Notes under the pieces: model-generated
What the model was told of the DNA's origin: nothing
The model's database searches: none
What the model saw: the letters and a program-made list of their open reading frames with translations, nothing else
Made by a program: the position numbers and the translations under genes
Source of the DNA: Candidatus Liptonbacteria bacterium
GTDB taxonomy: Bacteria; Patescibacteriota; Minisyncoccia; UBA6257; 2-01-FULL-56-20
DNA length: 64,000 nucleotides
Assembly: GCA_016867315.1 (NCBI GenBank)
Contig: VGJV01000002.1
Location: 51,386-115,385, forward strand
Reading direction: 5' to 3'
Part shown: piece by piece, positions 2,718 to 63,173 of the stretch
Position numbering within the stretch: position 1 is the first letter of the stretch
Layout: every line of letters begins with the position of its first letter

Positions 2718-3125
2718 TTAAAGCGCTAAGGCAGGATCCCTTCGTTCGTGCAGTTTAAGCCAACGAGCGAAACGCTCAGGAAGCTTCAAAAAATTTCCTT
2801 GTAAAGTCTTCAAATAGAGAGAAAGCGCTCCCTCGAAAATATGAGAAGCAATGTGCTGCAGCGCCATCCAACCCGCAAAAAGCAGGAGAAGCGCGGCGAA
2901 CACTCCCCATGCACTCATCGTGGCGAGCGAAAAACCTTTCAAGGCCTCGAGATAAAAACCGGAAGTGGAAACCGCATCCCCTGGAGGACACGCCACACCC
3001 CCATGTGCACTCGCGGCCAAACATCCTCCTCCGTGATTCGCTCCATGATTCATACCGAAAGCCCCCAGCACCGCGATGGATACGAAAGCTAATATAAGAA
3101 ATACAGCTCCTGCTTTCCGGCTCAT
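2718..3125 (-). CDS. Hypothetical membrane protein with a His/Gly-rich segment (possible metal binding)
   Basis: Trimmed to the MSRKAG start. Two TM segments and an HGANHGGGC...AHGGVACPPGD motif. Confidence 0.4.
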   Translation of the reverse strand: MSRKAGAVFLILAFVSIAVLGAFGMNHGANHGGGCLAASAHGGVACPPGDAVSTSGFYLEALKGFSLATMSAWGVFAALLLLFAGWMALQHIASHIFEGALSLYLKTLQGNFLKLPERFARWLKLHERRDPALAL

Positions 3126-4107: not shown

Positions 4108-4214
4108 AAATAAAATTTCTAATTTCTAATTGACCTAATTTCTAAAGAAAATTGTTGCGCCTTATTCATTGGGAGTTGGGATTTATTTAGGAATTAGAAA
4201 TTCTGAATTAGAAA
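4108..4214. repeat. AT-rich inverted-repeat element (aatttctaatttctaatt ... aattagaaattctgaattagaaatt) between ftsX and ftsE
   Basis: Arms of about 30 nt at 4113-4145 and 4178-4212 flank a 30-nt GC-richer centre. Confidence 0.45.
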
Positions 4215-4898
4215 TTACACAAGGATATATTTGCCTTTAACCTCGTCCCGGAACACCCGCCCTCGATCGAGCGTAATCACACGCTTTTCGAGATTATTGA
4301 TGATTTCCTTGTCGTGGGTGGCAAGTATTACCGTCGTCCCTAATTGATTGATTTTCTCCAATAATTTAATGATTTCCGCAGTATGAAATGGATCAAGATT
4401 CCCCGTCGGCTCATCCGCAATAATGACTTCCGGCCGGTGGATCATCGCCCGCGCGATTGCCACCCGCTGCTTCTCCCCTCCTGAAAGCTCATGCGGAAAA
4501 TTCTTGCTCTTCTCGGCCAGCCCTACCATATCCAAAACCTGCGGTACCAACTCATTAATCTCCCGCTGAGCCCGCCCCTCTACCTCGAGCGCAAATGCGA
4601 CGTTCTCAAATGCAGTTTTAGTGGGAAGCAATCGGAAATCCTGGAACACCACTCCGATATGGCGACGAAATTGGGGTAATTCGCTGGAACCCAATTTATT
4701 GACTTCATATTGACCAAAAAACACCCGGCCGCGGCTGGGTTTCTCTTCTCCAATTAAAAGCTTAATAAGCGTAGACTTTCCGGCTCCCGATCTCCCCGCA
4801 AGCGAAACGAACTCTCCCTGTTTTATCTCTAACGTAACATCCTCAAGCGCTGGACTTAAGTGATCATAAATTTTAGCTACCCCTTGAAAAAAAATCAT
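4215..4898 (-). CDS. ftsE: Cell division ATP-binding protein FtsE
   Basis: Walker [13 protein letters not shown] signature [14 protein letters not shown], Walker [12 protein letters not shown]. Trimmed to the [11 protein letters not shown] start. Confidence 0.85.
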
Positions 4899-10371: not shown

Positions 10372-10776
10372 TTAAAGAATCGAGGAATGAAACTTCTCGG
10401 GTTCATGCGGTTCCATCACCTTGATTTCAAACTCCCAGTCGAATTCTTTCCCTTGTTGCCGCTTTTCTAAATCCTCCTTAAGCGGCTGCTGATCATACCC
10501 CAGCGCCACCACTGCCGGCCGCTGCTTTCGGAACATCACATAATTTTCTCCAAGCCTGTCTCCCATCACTACCTCGTCTACATATTCGGAAGACTTCAAA
10601 TGCTCCATACGCACGAGTATAGGAAGCCGAGGATAAATTCCTTTAAGCCCTTCCGCCACCGTATCTCGCGCGACAAGCGCCACAAGATAATCCCCCTGCG
10701 CCCGAGCCTGCTTCAAAAACTGTTTGTGTCCCTCGTGCAAACCATCAAAAACTCCGAACACTAAAACTTTTCGCAT
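10372..10776 (-). CDS. Cytidylyltransferase-family nucleotidyltransferase (TagD/RibL-like)
   Basis: 134 aa. VLVFGVFDGLHEGHKQFLKQARAQGDYLVALV matches the HxGH nucleotidyltransferase motif of glycerol-3-phosphate cytidylyltransferase and archaeal FAD synthetase. Confidence 0.7.
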   Translation of the reverse strand: MRKVLVFGVFDGLHEGHKQFLKQARAQGDYLVALVARDTVAEGLKGIYPRLPILVRMEHLKSSEYVDEVVMGDRLGENYVMFRKQRPAVVALGYDQQPLKEDLEKRQQGKEFDWEFEIKVMEPHEPEKFHSSIL

Positions 10777-10827
10777 AGTGAAGAAAAATTACGAATTATG
10801 CATTATGCGCAATTCGTTATTCATGAT

Positions 10828-12285
10828 TCATGATTCGTTTTTGCGATGCCGCATCAAAGGATAGATCACTGTCTCGCGCAAAGGTTTATCCATAAGAAAC
10901 GCAAAAAGCCTCTCCGAAAGTCCGAATCCTGCGATGGGCGGAAATCCATATTCCATTGCTCGCAAGAATTCCTCATCAATCATCTGCGCCTCCGTATCTC
11001 CTGCTTCTCGCAATTTCATCTGCTCCTCAAATCGTGCCCGCTGATCCAAAGGATCGTTCAACTCCGAAAACCCTTTTGCCAATTCCGTTGCTCCGGCCAC
11101 TACTTGAAATCGCTCCACGCGTTCCGGATCTTCCGCCATCCGCTTCGCAAGGGGCTCAATTGCTACCGGGGGATTCACCAAAAAGCCCGGCTGAATAAGA
11201 TTGGGTCTCACAGTTTTTTTATAAATAAGATCGATGAGCCTTCCTCTTCCAAGGCCTGGTTCGAGCGCGATCTTCAAAGCCTGCGCTTTTGCCCTAAGCT
11301 CTTCAACATTTGCAGTGCGCGGATCAAGCCCGTTCGCCTCTTGGAAAACTTCACAGTACTCTATTTTCTTCCACTTCTTTCCCCATTCAATTTTTTTCCC
11401 TTGATGCATGGTAGTAAGTCCTCCAGTAACCTTCTTGATCGTCTCTTTAAATAAAGCTTCGGTGATCTTCATCAAATCATGGTAGTCCCGATACGCCCAA
11501 TAAAATTCGAGTTGCGTGTAGTCCTGGAGATGCTCCCGATCGATACCCTCGTTTCGGAAGATACGCCCGATTTCGAATACTTTCTCATACCCACTCGCCA
11601 TAAGCTTCTTCAAAGGCAGCTCCAGCGAAATCCGAAGATAGAAATCGGCATCGAGTGCATTGTGATGAGTGATAAAAGGCTCTGCCTCCGCTCCGCCCGG
11701 CACTATCTCGAACACCGGCGTCTCTACCTCCAGAAATCCTTCCTTTTTAAGGAAGTTACGAATAGTATCCCAAAACCCTGCTTTTTTGCGGAATAGTTCT
11801 CGAGCCTCCTCGGAAAAAAAAATATCCAAATACCGCTCCCGCAACCGAGTCTCTACATCTTCCACTCCATACCACGTGGAAGGCATGGGACGAAGCGACT
11901 TCGAAGCCAAGGTAAGCGCCTTCGCTTCTACGCTCTGCTCCCCCCTCTTCGTCACAAAAAGCGGTCCAGTCACAGAGAGAAAATCCCCCCGATCGAGTAC
12001 CGTCCGCCAAAATTCGAAGTCTTTTAAACTCTCCTCTTTAAGTACCGCTTGGATCGAACCGGATTCATTCCGCAAATCCAAAAACACAATTTTCCCTTGA
12101 TCGCGGATGCTCATTACGCGCCCCACAAGAGAAACTTTCTTTTTAGCCTTCGAGAGGGAAGCAAATTTTTCCTTCGCTTCTGCAACAGAGTGCGTACGCG
12201 GCACCTTCACAGGATAAGGCTCTACCCCATGGGCCTTGAGCGCCTCTAATTTTTTTCGCCGCTCGGCAATAAGATCCTCCAACAT
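10828..12285 (-). CDS. lysS: Lysine--tRNA ligase (class II)
   Basis: 485 aa, N-terminal OB anticodon-binding domain (GRVMSIRDQGKIVFLDLRNESGSIQAV) and class II catalytic motifs. Confidence 0.9.
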   Translation of the reverse strand: MLEDLIAERRKKLEALKAHGVEPYPVKVPRTHSVAEAKEKFASLSKAKKKVSLVGRVMSIRDQGKIVFLDLRNESGSIQAVLKEESLKDFEFWRTVLDRGDFLSVTGPLFVTKRGEQSVEAKALTLASKSLRPMPSTWYGVEDVETRLRERYLDIFFSEEARELFRKKAGFWDTIRNFLKKEGFLEVETPVFEIVPGGAEAEPFITHHNALDADFYLRISLELPLKKLMASGYEKVFEIGRIFRNEGIDREHLQDYTQLEFYWAYRDYHDLMKITEALFKETIKKVTGGLTTMHQGKKIEWGKKWKKIEYCEVFQEANGLDPRTANVEELRAKAQALKIALEPGLGRGRLIDLIYKKTVRPNLIQPGFLVNPPVAIEPLAKRMAEDPERVERFQVVAGATELAKGFSELNDPLDQRARFEEQMKLREAGDTEAQMIDEEFLRAMEYGFPPIAGFGLSERLFAFLMDKPLRETVIYPLMRHRKNES

Positions 12286-13048: not shown

Positions 13049-13852
13049 TTAAATTTCGTTCTTTGCTTCTTGCTCTTCTCTGCCCGGCAGTGGTTTCGTC
13101 GCGGCAGAATTTTTAGTTCGGATATGATAGGTATCCGCCCAAAGTCTGAAGCGAATTGTAAGGGTTTCGATAGCAAAACGCAAGCCTGCCGAAAGCGGCA
13201 CTGTGGAAGCTCGGTCGTTTCTCCAATGCGCCGGAATCTCTTTGATGCGCAACTCTAAAGCACGCGCCAACGCCAAGGCCTCCACATCGAAGGCCCACCC
13301 ATTCATCTCCGCTCGAGAAAATATTTCTTCCGCTGCGCCACCCGTAAATACCTTGAATCCGCATTGGGTGTCCCACACACCGGGAAGAAGAAGCGCTTGC
13401 GCAAAAAGATTCAGCACTTTTCCGGCCACCCGTCGAAAAAGGGGTTGTGGCGGATCTAACTGCGCTCCACGCACTGCTCTCGAAGCCACCACTATATCGT
13501 ATTGCTCATGTTCATTTTGAAGATAAGGAAGGGCGAGCTCGAGATGCTCAAGAGAAGTAGAATTATCTGCATCCATAAATAGACGGATCTCCCCTCGGGC
13601 CGCAAGCATTCCTTGTCTCACCACCGCCCCTTTCCCGCGATTTTTTTTATTTTCAAGGAGAGAAAGAAAAGGGATGCCTTTGGCCATCTCACTCACAAGC
13701 TCCGCAGTGGCATCTTGCGATCCATCATTCACGACCAGAATCTCATATGAAAAGTTTTTTCCGCTCAAAATCCGATGCACATCTTGAAGCGTGGGCGGCA
13801 AGCGCTTCGCTTCGTTATACGCGGGAATGATGACGGAAAGAAATGGCTGCAT
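13049..13852 (-). CDS. Family 2 glycosyltransferase (dolichol-phosphate mannosyltransferase-like)
   Basis: VIIPAYNEAKRL ... VVNDGSQDATAEL ... DAD motif, consistent with a GT-A fold GT2 enzyme. Confidence 0.75.
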   Translation of the reverse strand: MQPFLSVIIPAYNEAKRLPPTLQDVHRILSGKNFSYEILVVNDGSQDATAELVSEMAKGIPFLSLLENKKNRGKGAVVRQGMLAARGEIRLFMDADNSTSLEHLELALPYLQNEHEQYDIVVASRAVRGAQLDPPQPLFRRVAGKVLNLFAQALLLPGVWDTQCGFKVFTGGAAEEIFSRAEMNGWAFDVEALALARALELRIKEIPAHWRNDRASTVPLSAGLRFAIETLTIRFRLWADTYHIRTKNSAATKPLPGREEQEAKNEI

Positions 13853-13862
13853 AGCAAGTGGT

Positions 13863-13943
13863 AAGTAGTAGGTAGTATGTAGCGAGAAGAATGTAAACGA
13901 GGTGAAGAATTGATTGCGTATTCTACTACTTACTACTTTCTAC
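13863..13943. repeat. GTAG-rich long inverted repeat (hairpin) between map and the GT2 gene
   Basis: gtaagtagtaggtagtatgtag ... ttctactacttactactttctacatactacttac. Imperfect inverted repeat of about 22-35 nt arms. Confidence 0.5.
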
Positions 13944-13946
13944 ATA

Positions 13947-14711
13947 CTACTTACTCGTGAGTATTCTCGGTCCTGACTCCGTGATCGCCACCGTATGCTC
14001 GAAATGAGCAGTAATACTTCCATCTGCCGCCGCAAAACTATCATCAGGAAACTGCTTCACTTTGCCACGCCCTGCAGCAACCATGGGTTCAATCGCCAGC
14101 ACCATGCCAGGCAAAAGTTTGAGTCCCCGTCCGGGTACTCCCGTATTTAAAACCGAGGGCTCCTCATGAAGTTCTTTTCCAATTCCATGTCCGCATAATT
14201 TTTCTACTATAGAAAATCCGTCCTCTTCCACTCGCTTCTGAATCGCCGCTCCTATGTCCCCTAAAGTATTTCCGGGTCGTGCCTGTCTGATTCCCCCCAT
14301 AAGCGCCGCGTGAGTCGTCTTAAGCAATCGCTTCGCTTCCTCGGTGCCTTTTCCTGCGATGACTGTACGCGCCGAATCCACATTCCAATCTTTCCACGTA
14401 AGCCCGGCATCGATTTTGACCACATCCCTCTCTCTAATTTCATACCCCGAAGGAATTCCGTGCACCACGGTCTCATTTATAGAAACACAAAGCGCCGCAG
14501 GATATCGCTCATCGCTCCCGGGAGCGTGATATCCCAAAAAAACCGGTATGGCTTCCGCTTCTTGAATGAGTTTTCGGGCAAGCAAATCAAGCTCCTCTGT
14601 CCGCATTCCCACACGCACTGCACTCACTAATACCTCAAGCACGTGGGCCAAACGCTTTCCCGCTTCGGCCATCATTTCAATTTCTGCCGGAGTTTTTATT
14701 GTGATTGCCAT
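13947..14711 (-). CDS. map: Methionine aminopeptidase type I
   Basis: 254 aa, conserved metal-ligand residues of the pita-bread fold (D..D..H..E..E pattern). Confidence 0.9.
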   Translation of the reverse strand: MAITIKTPAEIEMMAEAGKRLAHVLEVLVSAVRVGMRTEELDLLARKLIQEAEAIPVFLGYHAPGSDERYPAALCVSINETVVHGIPSGYEIRERDVVKIDAGLTWKDWNVDSARTVIAGKGTEEAKRLLKTTHAALMGGIRQARPGNTLGDIGAAIQKRVEEDGFSIVEKLCGHGIGKELHEEPSVLNTGVPGRGLKLLPGMVLAIEPMVAAGRGKVKQFPDDSFAAADGSITAHFEHTVAITESGPRILTSK

Positions 14712-32048: not shown

Positions 32049-32082
32049 AACACACGGAATCTAGAAGCTAGTAAAGTAGAAT

Positions 32083-32112
32083 CTAGAATGAAACAAACAA
32101 TACATTATAAAA
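32083..32112 (-). terminator. Hairpin (atgcccc-gcgcaact-ggggcat) followed by a T-rich run on the minus strand
   Basis: Terminator of the 32233..32736 gene, or a leader structure upstream of rpsL. A TATAAT lies adjacent on the minus strand. Confidence 0.45.
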
Positions 32113-32232
32113 TGCCCCCGCGCAACTGGGGCATGCGTCCCTTATTCTATATAACTCCTTACTACTGTCAATAAAAGCACGCGGGCGAGCCATGAAAGAC
32201 CCGCCCACATAGTAAAAGAAAAAACCTTCAGA

Positions 32233-43336: not shown

Positions 43337-43999
43337 TTATATCTTCTCTGCGTTTTCTACCCGGAAGGTTCCGATCTGCGTCCGGCGCAAACTCCAAAGC
43401 GTCGCCGGCACCCCTACACGCTTTCCAATCTCTTCCGCCAAAGAACGGATATACGTTCCGCTTGCGACTTCTGTCTCAAACTTCAGAACTACCCCCTCTC
43501 CTTCCTGGCAAATTCCTTGAAATGTAATTCGAATCACTTCCATTTCTTTTTCGGGAGGAGTAAATTCCTCCCTTTGTCGTGCTTTTGCATACAAACGCTT
43601 CCCACCCACCTTAATCGCCGAATATTTTGGTACCGGCAACATAATCTTTCCCACCATGCTTTTTAAAACTCCCTCCGAGCTTTCTTTTAGAAATTCGAAA
43701 TTAGTAATGAGTAATTTCTCGAGGACCTTCCCTTCCCTATCTCCCGTGTCTGTGCGCATTCCAAGCATTACCTCTGCCTCGTAGACTTTTGGCAACTTCA
43801 GATATTCTTGTAATTTTTTTGTACCCTCCCCCACCGCCACAATCATGAGTCCCGTGGCCAGTGGGTCGAGCGTGCCCGCATGCCCCATCTTGGGAAAAGG
43901 CGCCGAATGGCCATTTTCTCTAAACTTTCGCCGCAGTCTTCGGATCACATCAAACGACGTGATCCCGGAAGGCTTGTCTATAAGCAAAATGTTGTGCAT
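43337..43999 (-). CDS. truB: tRNA pseudouridine(55) synthase TruB
   Basis: [14 protein letters not shown] ... [14 protein letters not shown] catalytic Asp motif. Confidence 0.85.
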
Positions 44000-46171: not shown

Positions 46172-47233
46172 ATGGATTTGGCCCTCATTCTTATTCTCAT
46201 CCTGATTCTTGCCGCGCTCGCCGGTGGCTTTTGGTTTTTATGGCGGGAAATGCATCGCGAAAAAGAGGCAAAACCCGATCAATCCCTCCTTCTCCTTCAA
46301 AACCAAATCAATGAACTCTCCCGCGTACTTGATAACCGACTAGGGGATTCTGCGAAAGCAATCCAGACGCATTTTGGAGAAAGCACAAAACTTATCCGCG
46401 AAATCACCCAAGAACTCGTGCGCGTGGGCGAAGGTCAAAAACAAGTCCTCTCCATCACCGACCAACTCAAAAACCTCCAGGATATTTTGAAAAACCCGAA
46501 ACAGCGAGGAGTGCTGGGAGAATATTATCTGGAAACCGCCCTCCGAAACGTCCTCCCTCCGGGAAGCTATCAAATGCAATATCCCTTTAAAGATGGGACG
46601 ATCGTGGACGCAGTCATATTCCACCAAGGAAAAATCATCCCCATTGATTCCAAATTCTCCCTCGAAAACTACACGCGCATATTGGATTCGAAAACCGATG
46701 CAGATCGGAAAAAATTTGAGGAAGCGTTCCGCGGCGATCTAAAAACCCGTATCGATGAAACTTCAAAATATATAAAACCCACCGAAGGCACTATCGAGTT
46801 CGCCTTTATGTATATCCCCTCGGAAGGAATTTACTACGACCTCCTGGTCAATAAAGTAGGAGCGGTAGCCGCGCGCGACCTCCTAGAGTACGCCATTGCG
46901 GAAAAGAAGGTTGTCCCCGTCTCTCCTACGTCGTTTGCCGCCTATCTCCAAACAATTCTCATGGGTTTGAAACAAGCTGAAATTAACAAATCTGCTGATG
47001 AAATCCGAAAACGCGTGGGGGACTTGGGTCGCCACCTCATGAGCTTCGAAGAATACATGAAAAAATTAGGCGTGCAATTAGGCACTGCTTCGAAAACCTA
47101 TTCTAAAGCCTATCAGGAGCTCCGGAAAATAGACAAAGACGTGTTAAAAATCAGCGGCGAAACGATGGGTGTAGAACCTATGACGCTCGAAGCTCCGAGT
47201 TTTGACGAAGAAGAAAGCCAAGCACTACTTTAA
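46172..47233 (+). CDS. rmuC: DNA recombination protein RmuC
   Basis: N-terminal TM, coiled coil, and a conserved C-terminal RmuC domain (KNPKQRGVLGEYYLETALRNVLP...). Confidence 0.8.
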   Translation: MDLALILILILILAALAGGFWFLWREMHREKEAKPDQSLLLLQNQINELSRVLDNRLGDSAKAIQTHFGESTKLIREITQELVRVGEGQKQVLSITDQLKNLQDILKNPKQRGVLGEYYLETALRNVLPPGSYQMQYPFKDGTIVDAVIFHQGKIIPIDSKFSLENYTRILDSKTDADRKKFEEAFRGDLKTRIDETSKYIKPTEGTIEFAFMYIPSEGIYYDLLVNKVGAVAARDLLEYAIAEKKVVPVSPTSFAAYLQTILMGLKQAEINKSADEIRKRVGDLGRHLMSFEEYMKKLGVQLGTASKTYSKAYQELRKIDKDVLKISGETMGVEPMTLEAPSFDEEESQALL

Positions 47234-47345
47234 TTTCTAATTACTAATTCCTAAAAAATACTCAAATCCCAAATTCCAAAGGTATCCGTTCGGATTTAGA
47301 AATTGGAGTTTGTTTAGAAATTAGATATTAGGAATTAGGATTTAT
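47231..47345. repeat. AT-rich inverted-repeat element (taatttctaattactaattcctaa ... ttagaaattagatattaggaattagga) between convergent rmuC and ftsZ
   Basis: Inner atccgttcggat palindrome. Same aatttctaatt/aattagaaatt motif family as at 4.1 kb and 31.0 kb. Confidence 0.45.
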
Positions 47346-49873: not shown

Positions 49874-50302
49874 TTAAAAACCTTCGCGCGCGAGCATGAG
49901 AAGCTTCTTTTCTGCTCGACGCATCTTGATCGTATCACGCTCCCGCGCATGACGGAAGCCAAGTAGATGAGCGAAACCGTGGATAACTAAAAAAAGCAGT
50001 CGATCTGGATCGTTCTCGAACCGTTCCGCATTCACGTAGATCTCCCCCAAAGAAGTCTCTCTGTCCGGATGAGGAAAATTATGAGGCTCCTCAAATGCCA
50101 AAACATCTACTATGCGCACTTTCTTCCCTGTAGTCTTGAACTTAAGGGCGCGCATCTCCGCATCAGTCACAAAAAAAACCTCCACAGCCCCTGGAGGATG
50201 ACCGAGCTCCCTAAGAACCCGAGCCACAGCCCGCCGGATGCGTTCGCGAAGCTTGGAACCCATCTCAAAATCCATCCCGGCTGCGATACGAGGCGATTTC
50301 AT
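49874..50302 (-). CDS. ybeY: rRNA maturation endoribonuclease YbeY
   Basis: HGFAHLLGFRH (HxxxHxxxxxH) zinc motif. Confidence 0.8.
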   Translation of the reverse strand: MKSPRIAAGMDFEMGSKLRERIRRAVARVLRELGHPPGAVEVFFVTDAEMRALKFKTTGKKVRIVDVLAFEEPHNFPHPDRETSLGEIYVNAERFENDPDRLLFLVIHGFAHLLGFRHARERDTIKMRRAEKKLLMLAREGF

Positions 50303-50410
50303 CCCCTACCGCGAAGCGAAGGCGAAGACGTACCCGCTGCGGTACGACGAGTCCCGAAGCGACAAAGGTAGGAATTTTGAGATGGGTTCTAGGCTCTGCC
50401 TTTCTTTTTT

Positions 50411-54066: not shown

Positions 54067-55606
54067 CCGCAAAACTCAAAGAAAAAGTAAACCCTCGGCC
54101 TGCCGCTTTTCTGATCTCCGTAAGAGGCAACTGAGTACTTTTGAAAGCGGGATCAGTATCAAGGGCTTTCTTTAAATTCAATATATCCGTCTCCGAAGGC
54201 GCCTCTCCGGAAAGCACGGTAGCAGTACTGCTGTCCTGATAGTAAAGCCGATGCAGCTGAATGTGATGAGTGGCAAGTAAAGCCGTGAGCTTCCCAATAA
54301 GCGGACCCTTAGGAATTCGGAACTTCTCCGTCGCCTGAATAAGCTCGAGGGTTCGATTAAAGCGGGCGGCATGGGCCCTAAGCGACTCCATTTCAGCCAC
54401 CTCTGCCTTTTTGAGCTGGAATGCGCTCTGCGATTCGAGTGTTCGTCGCATGTTGATGAGAAAGACATCCGCCACTATAAAAGCAATAAGAAGTATGCCA
54501 AGTACTGCGGGTATCACCACTCTCCAAAAACTTATAAATCCTAGAACTTGCTCATGCCGAAAACGCTCCTGCGCCCCGATTCCCAAAAGACTAATATCTC
54601 GATCTTCCCCTCGAGGCACAAGCCCTCGAAGTGCGCTTCCCAATGCCACGAACCACTCTGGAGTAGCTTGCAAATTTCCTTGAAGCGCAAGGGGCTGCAC
54701 GGTCAATCCAAAATTACTACTTACCACTCGCCCCACTTCGTCTCCTAAGGCGGAAGCCGAAATGAGCACTTCCTTTACCGGTTCCGGCCAGTGTGCACTA
54801 TAAAAGTTCAATACCTGATAAAGACTTCGCTTGAGAAGCGCTTCGAAAGCTTCCCGTGTCACTTGTTGTTTATCATTTTGGACATCTTTCCAACCATGAA
54901 AATATTCAAAGTAGAGATGCCCCTTCCTAAGAATAAGAAAATCCAACCCCGAAGAGTCGAGGTTTATTAATACATAAGGTTTTGTGGACTCCACACGTAC
55001 CCCCCGTTCGCGCGCCAAACGCGCTAAAGCTAATGCTCGAGACTCGATAGCCACGACGCTAAATCCGCCCTCCTCCAAAGCCTTGGTCACTTCATCCACG
55101 ACTTTCCGATCTATAAAAGCAGAAAGTACCTCCAGCCGAAACGTATCCTTATCCTCTCCCACAAGTTGCCACCCTGAATATGCCTCCTTCACCTCTACGG
55201 GGGAAACCATTTGAATATTAAGCTGGACTGCCTTTTCTAAATTCTCTCCTTGAATAATCGGGAGTCCGAAAACCTGACTATAAATACTGATGGAGCTCAA
55301 AGACACCACTACATTCACTTTTTTATTTTTTGCCGCATCCGGCCCCAAAACCTGTTCGCGCAGCTTCTTTACAATCGCCACAAATTCCGGCCGATTTTTG
55401 ATGTGATTTGACTCCATGAGTCCCGGAGGCAGCCGCATACTCACAAACTTGGGCTTCCCCTCTTCAAAAAGCGCGAAGCGAACAGCGGTATCCGATATTT
55501 CCAACCCGCCGATAGGAGTTCTTGCCCGAAGAAGCGCCGCAGCGCGCTGGAGATAATAACCAAAATTCTGAAGCGAGGAAGTCATGATCACTGGACTTCT
55601 TTCCAT
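54056..55606 (-). CDS. pilM: Type IV pilus assembly protein: PilM (actin-like) fused to a PilN-like TM/coiled-coil region
   Basis: N-terminal 350 aa is an actin-like ATPase fold. It is followed by a single TM helix (ISFWRVVIPAVLGILLIAFIVADVFL), a coiled coil and a periplasmic domain. 516 aa. Confidence 0.7.
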   Translation of the reverse strand: MERSPVIMTSSLQNFGYYLQRAAALLRARTPIGGLEISDTAVRFALFEEGKPKFVSMRLPPGLMESNHIKNRPEFVAIVKKLREQVLGPDAAKNKKVNVVVSLSSISIYSQVFGLPIIQGENLEKAVQLNIQMVSPVEVKEAYSGWQLVGEDKDTFRLEVLSAFIDRKVVDEVTKALEEGGFSVVAIESRALALARLARERGVRVESTKPYVLINLDSSGLDFLILRKGHLYFEYFHGWKDVQNDKQQVTREAFEALLKRSLYQVLNFYSAHWPEPVKEVLISASALGDEVGRVVSSNFGLTVQPLALQGNLQATPEWFVALGSALRGLVPRGEDRDISLLGIGAQERFRHEQVLGFISFWRVVIPAVLGILLIAFIVADVFLINMRRTLESQSAFQLKKAEVAEMESLRAHAARFNRTLELIQATEKFRIPKGPLIGKLTALLATHHIQLHRLYYQDSSTATVLSGEAPSETDILNLKKALDTDPAFKSTQLPLTEIRKAAGRGFTFSLSFAAKL

Positions 55607-56019
55607 AATACAAGGCTTACCTGCCCCGTGGAAGATGCGACGGAAGCAATCACTTGCACCTTTCTTGTGTGAAACGAGATAGTAGCAGTGGAAAGAATGC
55701 TTACAAGGCCTGTAGCAGGAGAGTTCTGGGTCACCGTAACCGTCGCGTTGTCATTTCCTAACGGCACATTGTACCCTGTGGTATTCGAGAAATCTTTATT
55801 GCGAAGCAATTGAAAATATCCATCGTTCGCCCCCGCCTTGGCCAATCCCAATGCTCGTTGAGCGGCTACGTACCCAAAACTCGAATTTACGAAGCTCGAA
55901 GTAAGAAATCCAAGAGTAACACCCACGAGAATCACAATGCTTCCCACGAGAAACACGAAGGAAAGTGCCGCCTGCCCCTTACGAGAAAATAGAAAATAGA
56001 AAATAGAAAATAGAGACAT
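55588..56019 (-). CDS. Pilin-like (pseudopilin) protein with a prepilin-type N-terminal hydrophobic segment and no Glu5
   Basis: MSLFSIFYFLFSRKG|QAALSFVFLVGSIVILVGV. Leader encoded by the (ttctatttt)n repeat. Confidence 0.6.
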   Translation of the reverse strand: MSLFSIFYFLFSRKGQAALSFVFLVGSIVILVGVTLGFLTSSFVNSSFGYVAAQRALGLAKAGANDGYFQLLRNKDFSNTTGYNVPLGNDNATVTVTQNSPATGLVSILSTATISFHTRKVQVIASVASSTGQVSLVLWKEVQ

Positions 56020-56081
56020 GCAACTTTGAAATTATACCTTTTCTGCCCTTCTACTTTCTACTTTCCAAATTCTACTTTCTG
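55984..56081. repeat. agaaaRtag/ctaYtttct inverted repeats bracketing the start codon of pilin-like gene 55588..56019
   Basis: (agaaaatag)x3.5 at 55984-56015 lies inside codons 2-12. ttctactttctactttccaaattctactttct at 56050-56081 is complementary with G-U pairs. TATAAT and the ATG lie in the 34-nt loop. Confidence 0.55.
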
Positions 56082-56083
56082 TC

Positions 56084-56968
56084 CTAGGGACTCCAATTGA
56101 TAATAACTTCGTTTACGGTAGGAGAAGTAGTTTGCATCCGATTTGATACAAGAATCACTCGATAGCGGAAATATCGCTTACCACTGTGCAATGTGTAATC
56201 CACCCGTTTCGATACCCCAGGACTCGTAGCATAGTACGTATTCGATGTCCCATCCGATCCCACATACGTCCAAGGACCGCTCGAGGAATTAGAAGTAGCG
56301 AATTGGAAACGCACCTGAGTCTCCGACGGCTGGGTACCCTGCCAAAGTACCGAGTTGATCTGCACCCCGCCTGAAACTCCCGTATCAAATGTGGAAGAAT
56401 CTAATGTCGCGATTGCTGAAGTTGCCACCCAAGAAGCCTGCAGTCTGTAATTCGAAACAAGACAACTATTGGAGGTATACTCGCTATTGTTTGCGCAATT
56501 AAAACTAATCCATCCTGCAACATCATTCCAAGCGTAACCGGAAAACATCCCGTTATCCGCATCAATAAGCACCTGATAATTAGAAGTACCGCATCCATTA
56601 TTATTATGGCAATCGAAGCTGATCCAACCGTATTGATCATTCCATGCATAGCCGCTTAAATTCCCGATGCCGTCATTCGTTACCTGATAATTGGATTGAC
56701 TGCAAATATTACCGCCAGAAGTAGTAGCGCAATCGAGGGAAATATCTTCTACCGAAGAACTTGCATATCCTTTGAGAAACTGGGAGTTCACCTTCACGGT
56801 GTCATTGATATAAAAGTCCATCCAGCCTATAAGATCATTCCACGCATAACGATACGTAGAATCAACATCCGTGGCGGCGCGAGCCACAGAAATGACAAGC
56901 AGGAAAGAAGCTACTCCGCATGCGATCCACAATATGGGGTTGGAATTTCGAGGAGAGGGCGATCTCAT
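56084..56968 (-). CDS. Secreted WND/GW-repeat protein in the pilus operon (putative pilus-associated adhesin)
   Basis: Signal peptide. Four repeats of YAWND(L/Q/V)xGW(M/I)(D/S)F(x)C spaced about 40-45 aa apart. Ser/Thr/Asn-rich. Confidence 0.6.
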   Translation of the reverse strand: MRSPSPRNSNPILWIACGVASFLLVISVARAATDVDSTYRYAWNDLIGWMDFYINDTVKVNSQFLKGYASSSVEDISLDCATTSGGNICSQSNYQVTNDGIGNLSGYAWNDQYGWISFDCHNNNGCGTSNYQVLIDADNGMFSGYAWNDVAGWISFNCANNSEYTSNSCLVSNYRLQASWVATSAIATLDSSTFDTGVSGGVQINSVLWQGTQPSETQVRFQFATSNSSSGPWTYVGSDGTSNTYYATSPGVSKRVDYTLHSGKRYFRYRVILVSNRMQTTSPTVNEVIINWSP

Positions 56969-57630
56969 TGAAATTGAATTTGGATAGAGCCGGTGCTCGT
57001 CGTGTAATAAATTTTTGTAGAAGTAGAAAACTTGCTATTAGTGCTTGTAACGGGGGTATCTTGGCCGGGGCCTCCAAACCAATCTGTTTGGCTGTAGATA
57101 TAACTAGTACGAGATCGAGTGAGATATGTGGAAAGAGTATTGGTAGCGCTTTGCGGCCAGCGGTACACGACGGTAACCCTCTTCGTAGAAGGATCGCTAT
57201 TTCCTCCGCTTGTTACTATAAGATTCCCCGCATCCCGAAAAACATCATCTACATAAAAATAGCGCGTATAGGTCGTAGTTCCCACCTGAAGATTTTCACT
57301 GCCAGACACCGAAGAAAAAGGGGAGGTGCTCGTCGTGAGGTAATATCGATTTGCCGAAGTGGTACTCAAGGCCAGAAGACCATTCCAATCGCCTTGAGAC
57401 CATACGCTCACATTATCCAAAAGTTCTTTCCCAAGGCTTGTACCTACTTGCGACTTAAGTGTCTGCGTATTGCTTCGAAGGACGGGGGCAATAATAGTGG
57501 CTCCTGCTCCAATCATGATGACTCCCACGAGAAGGGCGATCAAAACCTCGATAAGAGACTGCCCTCCACGGGCAGAAAGTAGAAAATAGAAAGTAGAAAA
57601 TAAATTCTTATGTTGATTCATGCCATCCAT
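56965..57630 (-). CDS. Pilin-like protein (prepilin-type N-terminus, Glu5 present)
   Basis: ...LLSARGG|QSLIEVLIALLVGVIMIGAGATII. Unusually long hydrophobic leader (NLFSTFYFLL). Confidence 0.65.
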   Translation of the reverse strand: MDGMNQHKNLFSTFYFLLSARGGQSLIEVLIALLVGVIMIGAGATIIAPVLRSNTQTLKSQVGTSLGKELLDNVSVWSQGDWNGLLALSTTSANRYYLTTSTSPFSSVSGSENLQVGTTTYTRYFYVDDVFRDAGNLIVTSGGNSDPSTKRVTVVYRWPQSATNTLSTYLTRSRTSYIYSQTDWFGGPGQDTPVTSTNSKFSTSTKIYYTTSTGSIQIQFQ

Positions 57631-57665
57631 TCTATTTTCTGCTTTCTAAATTCTATTTTCTAGTC
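57574..57665. repeat. agaaaRtag/ctaYtttct inverted repeats bracketing the start codon of pilin-like gene 56965..57630
   Basis: agaaagtagaaaatagaaagtagaaaataaa (coding, 57574-57604) and attctattttctgctttctaaattctattttctag (57631-57665). Confidence 0.55.
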
Positions 57666-58154
57666 TTAGTAGCTCACCGCCCCACTGGCATTAATTGATA
57701 TTGTAGTCGAAGCTGACCCGGATTTGGTCTGGATAATGACGGAAGTGGCCGTAGAAGCCAATCCGGTAATTTGAGCAAACGTTATTTCTTTAGTAGCTCC
57801 GGACCCTAAACTCGAAGTGGTATATGAAACAGTTTTAGGCAAAGGATAATGTCCCACGCGGGTAGAAGTCGTGTACGTGCCGTAAAAAAGCACATAAAAA
57901 GGCGTGGTAGAAGTGCTATTTTCAAAGTGTACTCCCCATACGGAACTTGAAGCCCGACTAAGAGACCTGCTCTGCGCTTCCCGCAAGGTAGCAGTCACTC
58001 GTTTTATCGTATCTTCAAATTCAGTTCTACTCTGGAATCCGAAAAGGCCAGTGAAGAGAAATGCGGCAAGAATCGCTCCAATAAAAAGCACGAGGGTAAT
58101 TTCCAATATAGTAAATCCTCTTCTATCGGTAATATGCTTTTGTAGTGCCCGCAT
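57666..58154 (-). CDS. Prepilin-type N-terminal cleavage/methylation domain protein (minor pilin)
   Basis: MRALQKHITDRRG|FTILEITLVLFIGAILAAFLF is a classic class III signal with Glu5. Confidence 0.8.
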   Translation of the reverse strand: MRALQKHITDRRGFTILEITLVLFIGAILAAFLFTGLFGFQSRTEFEDTIKRVTATLREAQSRSLSRASSSVWGVHFENSTSTTPFYVLFYGTYTTSTRVGHYPLPKTVSYTTSSLGSGATKEITFAQITGLASTATSVIIQTKSGSASTTISINASGAVSY

Positions 58155-58181
58155 TCTATTTTCTTTTTTATTTTCTAATGC

Positions 58182-59387
58182 CTAGAACTGAGTGGTAAGC
58201 TGATAAATTGGCACAATAATCGAAAGCGCAATAAGGACCACTATTCCTCCCATGCCCATAATGAGAAGTGGCTCAAGCACCGACACTAGCGACTTAATAC
58301 TCGCATCAATACTCGTGGCATAAAATTCACCCAAAGTTTCGAGCACTTCTTCGAGATGCCCGGCCTTTTCGGAAATTGCAATAAGATTTACTACCACCTT
58401 AGGAAATACCACTTCTCGACGGAATGCCTCCCCAATAGTAAGCCCTTTGGCAAGTCCTTCTCGAGCTACCCGCAATAACGCATAACGATATTCCTCCGAT
58501 CCTACGGCATCCGCAGTAATCTCAATGGTCTGGATAATAGGAAGTCCGGCTTTTAAAAGCAACGCCATAGTTGAAACCATTCGCTGAATTGCCACCTCGC
58601 GATAAACACTCTTAATAACAGGGATCCGGCTCATAACTTGGTCCACAATCCGACGACCCACAGAAGTTCGAGTAAAGAAGTATACCCCTCCTAACAGCAA
58701 CCCGATAAAGAGAATGGAGATAACCACAATATGTTCTCCTATGAAAAGACCCACGCCAAAAACCACTCGGGAAAAGAACGGCGGATTGATACCAGAATCA
58801 GTAAAAACCTTAGCAATTTTAGGCAGCGCAAAAGTCACAAGAAACACAAGCACCGCAAAGGCCGCGATAAGAAGAATGATGGGATAGATGAGTGCCGAGC
58901 GAATTCGAATGCGAAGCTCGGCTTCTCGATTCATAGATATGGAAAGATCTTCAAAAGTCTGTTGCAAGCTTCCCGAAGCTTCGGCCGCCTTAATAAGATT
59001 CACAAAAGTCGCAGGGAAAATAGTGGGATATTTTGCAAAAGCCTGATGGAAAGGTAACCCGCGAGTGAGATTCTCCCGCACTTCCAGGAGAAAGTTACGC
59101 ATGGCAGGATTATCAAAATCTCCAATCAAAATATTGATTGCGGAAAGCAAATCAGTCCCCACCCGAAGCATGAGCGCGAGGTACTTTGTAAGGAACACTT
59201 TATCGGTAATAGTGATCCCTCCGAAAATCCTTTTTACTCCGCCGCCTTTTTGTGCCAACGGCGTAATAGTAACCGGCCGCAATTCCTTCGCTGAAAGAAA
59301 TTGAAGTACCTGGGGTAAATTCACGGCATCCGTATCCCCCTCTACAACTTTTCCGGTTTTATCCGATGCAATGTAGTGATACAACAT
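58182..59387 (-). CDS. pilC: Type IV pilus inner-membrane platform protein PilC (GspF family)
   Basis: Two GspF repeats, three TM helices. 401 aa. Confidence 0.85.
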   Translation of the reverse strand: MLYHYIASDKTGKVVEGDTDAVNLPQVLQFLSAKELRPVTITPLAQKGGGVKRIFGGITITDKVFLTKYLALMLRVGTDLLSAINILIGDFDNPAMRNFLLEVRENLTRGLPFHQAFAKYPTIFPATFVNLIKAAEASGSLQQTFEDLSISMNREAELRIRIRSALIYPIILLIAAFAVLVFLVTFALPKIAKVFTDSGINPPFFSRVVFGVGLFIGEHIVVISILFIGLLLGGVYFFTRTSVGRRIVDQVMSRIPVIKSVYREVAIQRMVSTMALLLKAGLPIIQTIEITADAVGSEEYRYALLRVAREGLAKGLTIGEAFRREVVFPKVVVNLIAISEKAGHLEEVLETLGEFYATSIDASIKSLVSVLEPLLIMGMGGIVVLIALSIIVPIYQLTTQF

Positions 59388-61227: not shown

Positions 61228-61800
61228 CTAAAGCGCAAAGAGATTTCTCACCGACTCCGGAATGAAGTATTGCTCCAAAATTATAACAGACATCGCGATA
61301 GGCACCCACCAATAATAAAGAGGAGCTCGTCCCCAGTGAAACGCGGCGTACACTCCCGTAAGTAAAAACCCGATTAACAATACCGCCACTCCATACCATA
61401 AAAAAGTAGGGAATCCCGCAAGGAAAAAACACAATCCTAAAAGGGCCGCTTCTCCCTTTTCAAAAAAACGATCCCTGCAATAGCAATTGAGCCAATGTGC
61501 CACAAAAGCCAGTGACACTCCCGCTACCAACGAAAAAATCCAAGGAGCAAACAACCGTCTTACATAAAGGAGAAAATAATCTGATGACTGATAAGGGGGA
61601 AGAAAAAAGCGGGTAACTTCATTTCCCTGCCATGCCCAATAAAGAGCGGATGCCCAATACATAAGCACCCCCCCAATGATCACACCTCCAGCAATCCAAA
61701 ATACCTTCACGGTCCTTCGAAAAGAAGAAAGGGGGAGCAAACACTGCAACACAAAACAAGCTGAGAGAAGGGCGAAGCCCAGCTTGTCGGTGAGAAACAT
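61228..61800 (-). CDS. Polytopic membrane protein, possible short prepilin peptidase (A24-like)
   Basis: 190 aa, five or six TM helices, located between pilB and the major pilin. Canonical GGDVKL is not clearly present (FEKGEAALLG). Confidence 0.35.
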   Translation of the reverse strand: MFLTDKLGFALLSACFVLQCLLPLSSFRRTVKVFWIAGGVIIGGVLMYWASALYWAWQGNEVTRFFLPPYQSSDYFLLYVRRLFAPWIFSLVAGVSLAFVAHWLNCYCRDRFFEKGEAALLGLCFFLAGFPTFLWYGVAVLLIGFLLTGVYAAFHWGRAPLYYWWVPIAMSVIILEQYFIPESVRNLFAL

Positions 61801-62456: not shown

Positions 62457-63173
62457 TTATTGGGAGGGTGTGGATAACTCTCCGAATCGCGCAAATTCCT
62501 CGGGAGGTTCCGCCTCTAATCGCAACACGCTCCCCGACCCCATAAGGGGAAACTCGAGTACTAAAGCATGAAGCATGAGTCGACTCTGAAACGGAAGCTT
62601 TTTCCCATATAAAACATCTCCGACTACTGAATGACCGATGCTCGCACAATGCACCCGAATTTGATGGGTGCGTCCCGTCTCCGGCCTAAGCTCGAGAAGA
62701 GAAAACTGCTCCCCTTCTTTATTAATAGTATTTCGCACCGAATACCGGGTGATAGCTTCTTTCTGCATCCGCGTGGAATGCACGCTCCGGCGAGTACTTT
62801 CATTGAGCACTCCGATGGGCTTTTGAATCACCCCTTTCCTCTCTCGGGGTTCTCCACGCACCCATGCTAAATAGGTTTTCTTGATAACGCGGGTAGCAAA
62901 AAGCGACTTAAGATATTCGAAGGATGCCTGGGTTTTAGCCGCCACCATCACCCCCGAAGTGTCCCGGTCCAATCGATGAACAATACCCGGCCTATTTTCC
63001 GGATCATCCCCCACCGTTTTTACAGATGGATATTTTTGCGTCAGCCAATCCGCGAGCGTGAGTTCTTTATTATCAAATTTGGAATTTTTAATTTTATGGA
63101 CCAAAAGTCCTGCCGGCTTGTTCACGGCCACCAAGTTTTCATCCTCATAAATAATTTCGGGTTCGAGCATTAA
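62457..63173 (-). CDS. RluA-family pseudouridine synthase
   Basis: HRLDRDTSG catalytic motif. Trimmed to the MLEPEIIYED start because the longer ORF overlaps tRNA-Ile. Confidence 0.8.
   Translation of the reverse strand, partial: LMLEPEIIYEDENLVAVNKPAGLLVHKIKNSKFDNKELTLADWLTQKYPSVKTVGDDPENRPGIVHRLDRDTSGVMVAAKTQASFEYLKSLFATRVIKKTYLAWVRGEPRERKGVIQKPIGVLNESTRRSVHSTRMQKEAITRYSVRNTINKEGEQFSLLELRPETGRTHQIRVHCASIGHSVVGDVLYGKKLPFQSRLMLHALVLEFPLMGSGSVLRLEAEPPEEFARFGELSTPSQ

Follow-up and report, generated by a model that had tools for sequence, protein, structure and literature searches.

The start of a minor-pilin-like gene in a 64,000-nt stretch of a Candidatus Liptonbacteria contig (VGJV01000002.1; the whole stretch is called the window below) lies between two inverted tandem arrays of a 7-nt unit, which can fold together into a long hairpin with a -10 box and the ATG in its loop and with the 3' arm inside the coding sequence of the prepilin leader. 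We call this gene gene 1, and the two further minor-pilin genes of the same locus gene 2 and gene 3. The gene 1 element is one copy of a genome-wide class of quasi-palindromes, common both here and in related genomes, each made of two inverted arrays of about 7-nt units; in orthologous loci the arms covary, the -10 box is kept between them, often 6-8 nt before the start codon, and the arm within the gene is poor in G on the sense strand. We tentatively favor a reading, possible rather than probable, in which the G-free arm keeps the 5' end of a leaderless mRNA unstructured and the upstream arm masks that end only on RNA reading through from the preceding gene.

A heptamer hairpin around the gene 1 start codon

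Every gene of the pilin region is encoded on the minus strand (coordinates in Table 1). The upstream arm begins 3 nt past the TAG stop codon of a 294-amino acid (aa) open reading frame (ORF) and is a purine-rich heptamer array of the TAGAAAG type, 4.6 units long. It is followed by GGCAGAAAAGG, the TATAAT box, TTCAAAGTTGC and the ATG, and a single codon, TCT (codon 2), separates the ATG from the (CTATTTT) run of the downstream arm. This second array is 100% perfect, contains no G and supplies codons 3-12 (LFSIFYFLFS) of the prepilin leader; directly after it comes CGT AAG GGG|CAG with the predicted G|Q cleavage site, at which the conserved mature protein begins in the alignment of homologues. 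The original prediction had transcribed the repeat letters correctly and had placed the AUG and the TATAAT box between the arms, which re-reading (56019..56017 and 56036..56031) bears out. Exactly 7 nt past TATAAT there is also a TTG (window 56020-56030, minus strand), out of frame with the ATG, which opens a 14-codon ORF across the repeat; the loss of one heptamer would put this TTG in frame with the mature pilin.

Tandem Repeats Finder (TRF) gives a period of 7 at 55984-56014 (4.4 copies, 100% matches) as well as at 56049-56080, 57574-57602 and 57630-57662, with 4.1-4.7 copies over the four arms of genes 1 and 2. The repeat had been proposed to have a 9-nt unit, slippage of which would add or remove FSI or FYF tripeptides in frame; with a 7-nt unit, a single copy gained or lost would instead shift the gene 1 reading frame. 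Lag 7 is the sole enriched tandem period in the window (7 arrays versus 0-3 at lags 4-12), and the pattern TAGN4TAGN4TAG has 10 matches there, both pilin genes included, where 0.10 are expected.

Folded as sense RNA (55975-56090), the gene 1 arms form an 18-bp inner and an 11-bp outer stem with 29 arm-arm pairs at -43.1 kcal/mol, compared with -21.1 +/- 3.2 kcal/mol for shuffled sequences (z = -6.97; 0/200 shuffles equally good). The claim that 18 of 18 positions pair when G-U is allowed is right, and with the additional outer stem it is an underestimate. The claimed recurrence at the next pilin-like gene also holds, the gene 2 arms (57662..57631 and 57603..57574) folding at -28.3 kcal/mol (z = -5.15 in the shuffle comparison). 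An Rfam 15 scan of the whole window returned only four tRNAs at the gathering threshold and recognized no heptamer element, and the scan for intrinsic terminators called none at the gene 1 arms, where the loop is about 35 nt long.

A conserved -10 box in the loop

DNA of orthologous loci was taken from genome and metagenome collections (L-numbered loci; P-numbered entries are homologous sequences). Sixteen distinct orthologous loci were read, and 14 of them, array-less ones included, have an exact TATAAT at the position between the arms; the other two (L015 and L032) show only -10-like variants. The distance from the -10 box to the start codon ranges over 4-18 nt and is often 6-8 nt, as it is for TATAAT in 9/16 loci (L006, L009, L010, L016, L017, L026, L027, L028 and L030), a spacing that implies the geometry of a leaderless transcript. 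At window gene 1, one unit of the upstream array supplies a -35-like hexamer, and TAGAAA-18 nt-TATAAT matches the promoter consensus at 10/12 positions; exact TATAAT occurs within 60 nt of only 2 of 77 gene starts in the window, those of gene 1 and the major pilin. Gene 1 thus probably has its own promoter inside the hairpin loop. With the -10 box in the loop, the gene's own mRNA would lack the upstream arm, and both arms would occur together only on read-through RNA. An invertible promoter was rejected: the segment is about 35 bp, TATAAT points forward in all loci having it (14/16), and no recombinase domain was found among the neighboring genes.

These results also bear on the proposed sequestration of the start codon. 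The sequence can indeed form the hairpin, and the formation of the hairpin in the gene's own mRNA is doubtful, as the conserved -10 box lies between the arms. The arms flank the predicted transcription start and have no preference for pairing on the sense strand (see below), in neither respect resembling a riboregulator of the gene's own 5' untranslated region. With this predicted start downstream of the upstream arm and with a repeat number that is invariant across the assemblies, the two findings that the original prediction had itself named as contradicting it, the computational evidence leans against an own-mRNA mechanism.

Arms covary between species and do not vary within strains

Across 18 homologues of gene 1 the mature sequence is common from G|QAALSF on, and the leaders are unrelated. 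The module is present at gene 1 in L005, L006, L008/L014, L010/L012, L013, L015, L016, L020, L027, L028, L032 and L034, in the order upstream stop codon, 3-6 purine-rich units, TATAAT, start codon, 3-6 pyrimidine-rich units and RxG|Q, the upstream stop codon often being the first TAG of the array; orthologues of gene 2 or gene 3 carry it in L006, L010, L015, L016, L028, L030, L032 and L034. Arrays are absent from L007, L009/L019 and L017. Upstream and downstream units are matched as GGTAGNN/CCTACCA, TAGGGTW/CTATACC, TAGGTTW/CTAAAAC, TTGGAAC/CCAAGCT, TAAGCKT/CTTAACR, CAGAATY/ATTCTGG, GAATAAT/CATTATT and, with 8-nt units, AGGTGAGA/CACCTTTT. This covariation is also seen in the best 21-nt complementarity between arms, which is 16.6/21 within a locus versus 12.9 +/- 1.9 across loci.

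Pilin genes of one genome share a unit family in the window (TAGAAAR), L015, L016, L028 (TAGGTKT), L032 and L034 (GAATAAT), and do not in L006, L010 and L030; where the family is shared, arms of different pilin genes could pair with one another. Several simpler accounts of the unit sequence were rejected. TAG is no universal core, TAG/CTA being missing from about half of the orthologous arrays; a single motif for a trans-acting factor is ruled out by units that differ within genomes; and a function of the leader as peptide is ruled out by unit families that yield unrelated leaders (LFSIFYFLFS, LPPTTYHLPPT and LQTKTYNLKP).

Repeat number was compared in same-strain contigs, found by exact-protein look-ups of gene 1, the upstream ORF and the downstream PilM-like gene, and in members of 90%-identity clusters. 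The length variation that had been predicted did not appear: copy number is unchanged in the same-strain contigs spanning the arrays (6 fetched loci for gene 1 and 8 for gene 2, from five samples), and cluster mates (P0004, P0019 and P0020; P0005 and P0021) have the same copy number with differing start-codon calls. The one exception among cluster members is P0022, a close relative of the L010 orthologue, in which a 48-nt GC-rich palindrome (GTCCGGCCTCGCGCACCGCGAGCGTCGGAC) is inserted in the leader-coding array. Array length is kept even between species (P0002/P0008, P0003/P0005 and window gene 1/L032 gene 1), about 20 gene 2 orthologues at 50-60% identity have kept a leader of the LLSTFYFLLS type, corresponding to (TTTCTAY)n, and no orthologue is out of frame. 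Identical arrays and conserved lengths together argue that the arrays are not hypervariable.

A few contigs deserve mention in their own right. L011 (positions 1-70), a related contig, reads TAA in place of the +1 Gln codon, and this may reflect a pseudogene or a sequencing error. The contig L023 (SRR7053297) ends exactly where the (CTATTTT) array ends, and in SRR16108673 the loop is where the assembly is broken, into two contigs (L024/L004) that overlap by about 12 nt. Such breaks at the element could reflect population heterogeneity, of which they are a weak hint, or low coverage alone.

The coding arm is G-poor and the start regions are too

The sense strand of the downstream arms contains 5.1% G over 24 arrays versus 27.8% overall, and all 24 are G-poor. 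Avoidance of stop codons was considered as the cause and ruled out, since an enumeration of all heptamers predicts 28.8% G from such avoidance alone and gives a probability of 0.365 per array for units with at most one G. Shine-Dalgarno sequences are essentially missing at the 77 ORF starts of the window, around all of which G is depleted from -30 to +33 (17% at -15..-1 and 20% at +4..+33, compared with 28-29% elsewhere). The coding arm is an extreme case of this general rule of G-poor, unstructured start regions, which is a property of mRNA, and the strand-specific lack of G points to RNA. In several window genes a -10-like box precedes the start codon by 6-8 nt, a sign that leaderless mRNAs may be frequent.

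The pilus operon and further heptamer arrays in the window

At gene 2 the upstream arm stops 1 nt short of the first ATG, and its final unit forms a -10-like TAGAAT (57634..57629). A second in-frame ATG follows exactly 7 nt past this box; it is likely the start of a leaderless transcript, and the gene calls of L001/L021 pick it. The downstream arm, likewise G-free, encodes LFSTFYFLLS in the leader of a PilV-like prepilin (56965..57630). Gene 3, which encodes a GspH/ComGD-like pilin (57666..58154), has a single upstream array; it begins with the stop codon of PilC and leaves 1 nt between its end and the gene 3 ATG.

These genes belong to an operon in the order major pilin, 190-aa ORF, PilB, PilC, gene 3, gene 2, 294-aa ORF, gene 1 and PilM-like gene. 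Genes 2 and 3 match the N_methyl profile, with the PilV-like match of gene 2 below threshold. Neither gene 1 nor the 294-aa ORF has a Pfam or NCBIfam family match; gene 1 accordingly has no N-methylation profile, and its residue +5 is Ser, not Glu. The gene 1 product has exactly the sequence of a hypothetical protein from a Candidatus Liptonbacteria metagenome-assembled genome (Patescibacteria, or candidate phyla radiation, CPR). Its cleavage region reads RKG|QAALSFVFLVGSIVILVGV, a hydrophobic helix follows the G|Q site, and the AlphaFold model (pLDDT 85) has a helix over residues 3-74 and a five-stranded sheet, with weak structural matches to the ComZ, PilA and TT_C0855 pilins in the PDB. Gene 1 thus combines a leader ending in Gly, a hydrophobic helix, a helix-and-sheet fold and a place in a pilus operon, all features of type IV pilin-like proteins, and the earlier label of pilin-like is acceptable. 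The 190-aa ORF (61228-61800) between the major pilin and PilB encodes a multi-pass membrane protein without a family match, at a place where a prepilin peptidase might be expected.

About eight array sites occur in the window, three of them at the three consecutive minor-pilin genes. Elsewhere, paired inverted arrays have arms 30-70 nt apart (sites A, B and C and the hairpin at 10787; Table 1). The 3' arm of site A runs into a U-run and then an ATG, and site C resembles site A in sequence and is also followed by a U-tract. The hairpins at 4111, 10787 and 47227 look terminator-like, with U-runs and a location at the ends of genes. In the 3' arm of the second of these (10776-10839, minus strand), CATAAT-G-CATAAT-T-CGTAAT sets three -10-like boxes at 7-nt spacing, with a U-run and the next ATG behind them. 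Two candidates were set aside: site D (32057-32168), in front of rpsL, combines a TATAAT with a CTA-type array behind it, and its arms fold no better than shuffles (z = 0.2); an array inside a TruB-like ORF (43687-43715) is without a partner and was dropped as probable chance. An unpaired heptamer array encodes a surface loop, between LLVH and TLxDWL, of an RluA-like pseudouridine synthase and occurs at the same position in five genomes (window 63063-63098; L005 875-910; L006 2526-2563; L010 1071-1101; L016 2010-2047), with units that vary by genome (AAATTCC, AAATTAC, GCGACAA and GGCAAAT). Between YqeY-like and YbeY-like genes lies a palindromic element (50250-50395) resembling a miniature inverted-repeat transposable element (MITE), with terminal inverted repeats GAACCCATCTCAAAAT...ATTTTGAGATGGGTTC; a relative of it is inserted in the gene 1 upstream heptamer arm of L026 (~215-300).

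Table 1. Positions in the window of the gene 1 element and of related heptamer features.
Feature	Position	Strand	Basis or score
Site A: inverted (TTTCTAA)n / (TTAGAAA)n with a 57-nt gap, flanked by two co-directional genes	4111..4217	.	
Period-7 hairpin of CAT/ATG-type units, short loop, U-tract; next ATG 12 nt on	10787..10839	.	
Site B: inverted (TAGTAAG)n / (CTTACTA)n; 3' arm abuts ATG at 13852	13852..13955	.	z = -3.3
Site C: inverted arrays of the (TTTCTAA) type, flanked by convergent genes	47227..47344	.	z = -3.3 and -4.5
Gene 1, minor-pilin-like, 143 aa, class III signal peptide	55588..56019	-	product starts MSLFSIFYFLFSRKG|QAALSFVFLVGS (cleavage then QAAL...)
GGG CAG, predicted prepilin-peptidase site G|Q	55972..55977	-	homologue alignment
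Gene 1 downstream (3') arm, (CTATTTT)x4.3 = ctattttctattttctattttctattttct	55984..56013	-	TRF, fold
ATG start of gene 1, 11 nt past the -10 box	56017..56019	-	
TATAAT -10 box, in hairpin loop	56031..56036	-	kept in orthologous loci
Gene 1 upstream (5') arm, AGAAAGTAGAATTTGGAAAGTAGAAAGTAGAAG (same stretch given as agaaagtagaatttggaaagtagaaagtagaag)	56048..56080	-	TRF period 7, fold
-35-like hexamer TAGAAA, from one upstream-array unit	56055..56060	-	consensus scan
TAG stop of upstream 294-aa ORF (ORF 56084..56968)	56084..56086	-	
Gene 2 downstream arm, TTATTTTCTACTTTCTATTTTCTACTTTCT, G-free	57574..57603	-	TRF, fold
Second in-frame ATG of gene 2, exactly 7 nt past TAGAAT	57619..57621	-	
Gene 2 upstream arm, TAGAAAATAGAATTTAGAAAGCAGAAAATAGA	57631..57662	-	TRF period 7
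Gene 3 upstream array, TAGGCATTAGAAAATAAAAAAGAAAATAGA, single arm, no downstream partner	58155..58184	-	

A proposed role in read-through control and its rivals

We infer the transcription start, the read-through RNA and the effect of a duplex on that RNA from the patterns described above. Gene 1 would be transcribed from its own promoter within the loop, and these transcripts would carry only the G-free arm, giving an unstructured 5' end suited to initiation without a Shine-Dalgarno sequence. Transcripts reading through from the upstream gene would carry both arms, which could close around the start codon as a duplex of about 29 bp; the read-through RNA would then be silent for gene 1, or be processed or cleaved, or end there, and each minor pilin would depend for its expression on its own promoter. 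The build of the arms from heptamers would be the way in which hairpins arise and are maintained in this lineage, through slippage, and not a sequence-specific code. An arm inside the gene may be tolerated because cleavage removes the prepilin leader, whose sequence can vary freely. One locus fits this read-through model as a single case: L018 has no gene adjoining upstream (250-nt spacer), lacks the upstream arm and keeps the downstream array.

Several observations weigh against this proposal. A U-tract is missing after the 3' arm in most orthologues, and the AUG, in its 35-nt loop, is itself unpaired. Not every module is complete, as only the downstream arm is present at L018 gene 1, L008 gene 2 and L033 gene 2, only the upstream arm at window gene 3 and L005 gene 2, and at L030 gene 3 both arrays are there and are not complementary; in two related genomes the gene 1 arms consist of 8-nt units (L027, ~330-440; L028, ~2925-3060). 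The RluA-loop arrays indicate that arrays can persist at a locus, with turnover of the unit, without a role in a hairpin. Selection specific to RNA was also sought in folding and in G-U counts on the two strands, and no bias was found: over 10 modules the arms form 21 G-U pairs as sense and 30 as antisense RNA, and five modules fold better as sense and five as antisense RNA. The absent sense wobble bias would be expected of a palindrome that acts as DNA or is purely mutational, and with no general sense preference the perfect G-U match at window gene 1 is a local accident.

A neutral origin is a serious rival. Slippage would make and homogenize the arrays, template switching would keep the arms complementary, and the product, having no function, would survive where sequence is unconstrained, namely in intergenic spacers, the cleaved prepilin leader and surface loops. 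Such a by-product would account for the RluA-like coding-loop arrays with different units at one orthologous position, for the single-arm and non-complementary cases and the 8-nt units, for the absence of a G-U strand bias, and for the tolerance of the leader for the palindrome in P0022 and of the upstream arm for the MITE-like insertion in L026. Among the long simple repeats of prokaryotes, moreover, those with heptanucleotide units are reported to be the most frequent (Mrazek 2007, as cited in PMC4679880). We nonetheless regard this origin as rather unlikely, given the strict polarity of the pairs (24/24 downstream arms are G-poor on the sense strand, and not from stop-codon avoidance), the bracketing of -10 box and start codon at three paralogous genes and in at least 12 genomes, the retention of array family and length in distant relatives (window/L032 gene 1 and the ~20 gene 2 leaders), and the concentration of 3 of ~8 window array sites at consecutive minor-pilin genes.

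A more ambitious version of the read-through proposal, which we consider unlikely, sees in the inverted arrays an evolvable system of RNA-RNA pairing by which CPR bacteria control the leaderless mRNAs of their minor pilins. In it the G-free arm would be an initiation enhancer, independent of Shine-Dalgarno sequences, at the 5' end of the mRNA, and the purine-rich arm, at the 3' end of the RNA of the upstream cistron, would be an antisense mask in cis; as pilin-gene modules within one genome often share a unit, the mask might also act in trans. If true, this system would set the stoichiometry of pilus-tip components, and it would be the first defined mechanism for heptamer repeats next to bacterial start codons.

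A contingency locus, in which a change by one 7-nt unit would frameshift the leader and switch the minor pilin off or on while the upstream array retunes the promoter, seems quite unlikely. The repeat is perfect, non-triplet and placed in the 5' coding region of surface-filament genes, arrays are often perfectly homogeneous within species, e.g. (CCTACCA)4, (CTACCAA)4.7, (AGTTCCA)5 and (TTTCTAC)4.6, the TTG 7 nt past the -10 box would come into frame on loss of one unit, and the assembly breaks at array or loop in L023 and L024/L004 are weak hints in the same direction. The invariance of copy number in same-strain contigs and 90% cluster mates and the retention of length between species speak against it, however, as do the in-frame state of all orthologues, the modest size of about four units, and the presence of the same kind of array at housekeeping genes and terminators.

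It is very unlikely that the element acts as DNA, either as operator sites, with a repressor bound to tandem 7-bp heptads on each side of the promoter, or as a cruciform that is extruded under supercoiling and exposes or occludes the -10 box. The symmetry of the arrays about the -10 box, the -35-like hexamer supplied by one unit, mismatches without an RNA strand bias, and a unit family shared within a genome (window, L015, L028, L032 and L034), as a common trans factor would give, are all compatible with such an element. Yet the units AAATTAC, AACAAGG, GATGAGG, CTATACC and AATCGTA of L006 allow no single recognition sequence, spacers of 30-70 bp disfavor cruciform extrusion, the strand-specific lack of G points to RNA, and no candidate regulator was identified.

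An RNA switch is highly improbable in which the (UAG-N4)n arm is bound, and the read-through hairpin thereby opened, by a multimeric RNA-binding protein such as HutP, by a cold-shock protein or by S1. HutP recognizes the pattern UAG-N4-UAG-N4-UAG, triplets of which show a 100-fold enrichment in the window, and CspB of B. subtilis is described as binding one heptamer per protein with a TTCTTTT-like preference (as cited in PMC4679880), but about half of the orthologous arrays are without TAG/CTA (TTGGAAC, CAGAATY, GATGAGK, AGGTGAGA and GAATAAT), and the sites are many per genome and lie at unrelated genes. Equally improbable, finally, is the original model of a hairpin in the gene's own mRNA that hides the AUG, with a 9-nt unit and in-frame leader variation: the sense-strand hairpin here is strong and perfect over 18 bp with G-U pairs, but the unit is 7 nt, the -10 box is kept in the loop with leaderless spacing, the sense preference is not general and length variation was not seen.

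Significance and relation to known systems

Literature searches for such elements in Patescibacteria found none, and three aspects look new: paired, covarying, polarity-fixed arrays around a conserved promoter, their reach into a translated leader, and their occurrence in CPR bacteria. The start-adjacent heptamers of Cyanobacteria and Beggiatoaceae have been known for decades, to our knowledge without an accepted function, and the conserved, covarying, polarity-fixed pairs described here, set around a conserved promoter, lead to concrete and testable hypotheses. Minor pilins of cultivated CPR bacteria are thought to mediate host attachment. The locus points to individual, probably leaderless promoters for the minor pilins of this Liptonbacteria lineage, whose genome lacks Shine-Dalgarno sequences, and it offers a rare case of a nucleic-acid element housed in a translated and then discarded leader peptide.

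The nearest described phenomenon is the start-adjacent heptamer repeats of Beggiatoaceae and Nostoc, beside which the cyanobacterial STRR heptamers form another start-adjacent heptamer family. TAACTGA is found near starts in marine Beggiatoaceae, Cyanobacteria and Bacteroidetes (MacGregor 2015, PMC4679880), and TTTTGAA/TTCAAAA in Nostoc PCC7120 (bioRxiv 10.1101/2022.06.06.494920). In common with these, the arrays described here have 7-nt units in short, mostly intergenic arrays of 2-6 copies that end a few nucleotides before a start codon lacking a Shine-Dalgarno sequence, give stop codons in all three frames in the forward orientation, and lie at many unrelated genes, ribosomal-protein operons included, where a role in translation is suspected. 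Window genes 2 and 3 even read UAG A AUG, and 1-nt spacing is also the commonest in Beggiatoa. The differences are the arrangement in inverted complementary pairs around promoter and start codon, with one arm in the coding sequence of a prepilin leader, the lack of a fixed unit either genome-wide or between species, and the CPR host.

Other resemblances are more partial. The omega repressor of pSM19035 binds tandem 7-bp heptads. Intercistronic hairpins (RNase III sites, translational-coupling hairpins and REP/BIME) insulate or process polycistronic RNA, and like them the gene 1 element is a long, near-perfect duplex exactly between cistrons, from the upstream stop codon on; unlike them, it has a promoter and start codon in its loop, arms made of tandem repeats and a 3' arm that is coding. 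The HutP sites of the B. subtilis hut operon are UAG-N4 triplets in the 5' half of a hairpin (PMC2425495), and the upstream array likewise has at least three UAG, 4 nt apart, in the 5' part of a hairpin, but UAG is missing in about half of the orthologous arrays, there are many sites per genome, and a HutP homologue is not known from this genome, of which 64 kb was available and in which no search aimed at one was made.

Simple-repeat switches in signal-peptide regions include (CTCTT)n in Neisseria opa and the poly-G of pilC. The (CT)n of H. pylori oipA is a signal-peptide repeat contingency locus as well (PMC10564699). As in these, a non-triplet repeat occupies the stretch coding for the cleaved N-terminal leader of a surface protein, and one unit alters the frame; unlike in these, there is no copy-number polymorphism, the arrays have only about four units and a length kept between species, and there is a complementary upstream arm. 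In S. gallolyticus, pil1 has (GCAGA)n in a leader peptide together with a stem-loop terminator (PMC3894217). The likeness here is a pilus locus with repeats in a translated leader and an RNA stem-loop that decides, or in our case is proposed to decide, downstream pilus expression; in pil1, however, a leader ORF of its own, further upstream, contains the repeats, and the promoter is separated from the genes by a hairpin that is a classical terminator, whereas in gene 1 the repeats themselves build the hairpin and the promoter lies within its loop. Signal-peptide switches and pil1 are therefore mechanistic analogies, and the gene 1 element is a member of neither family.

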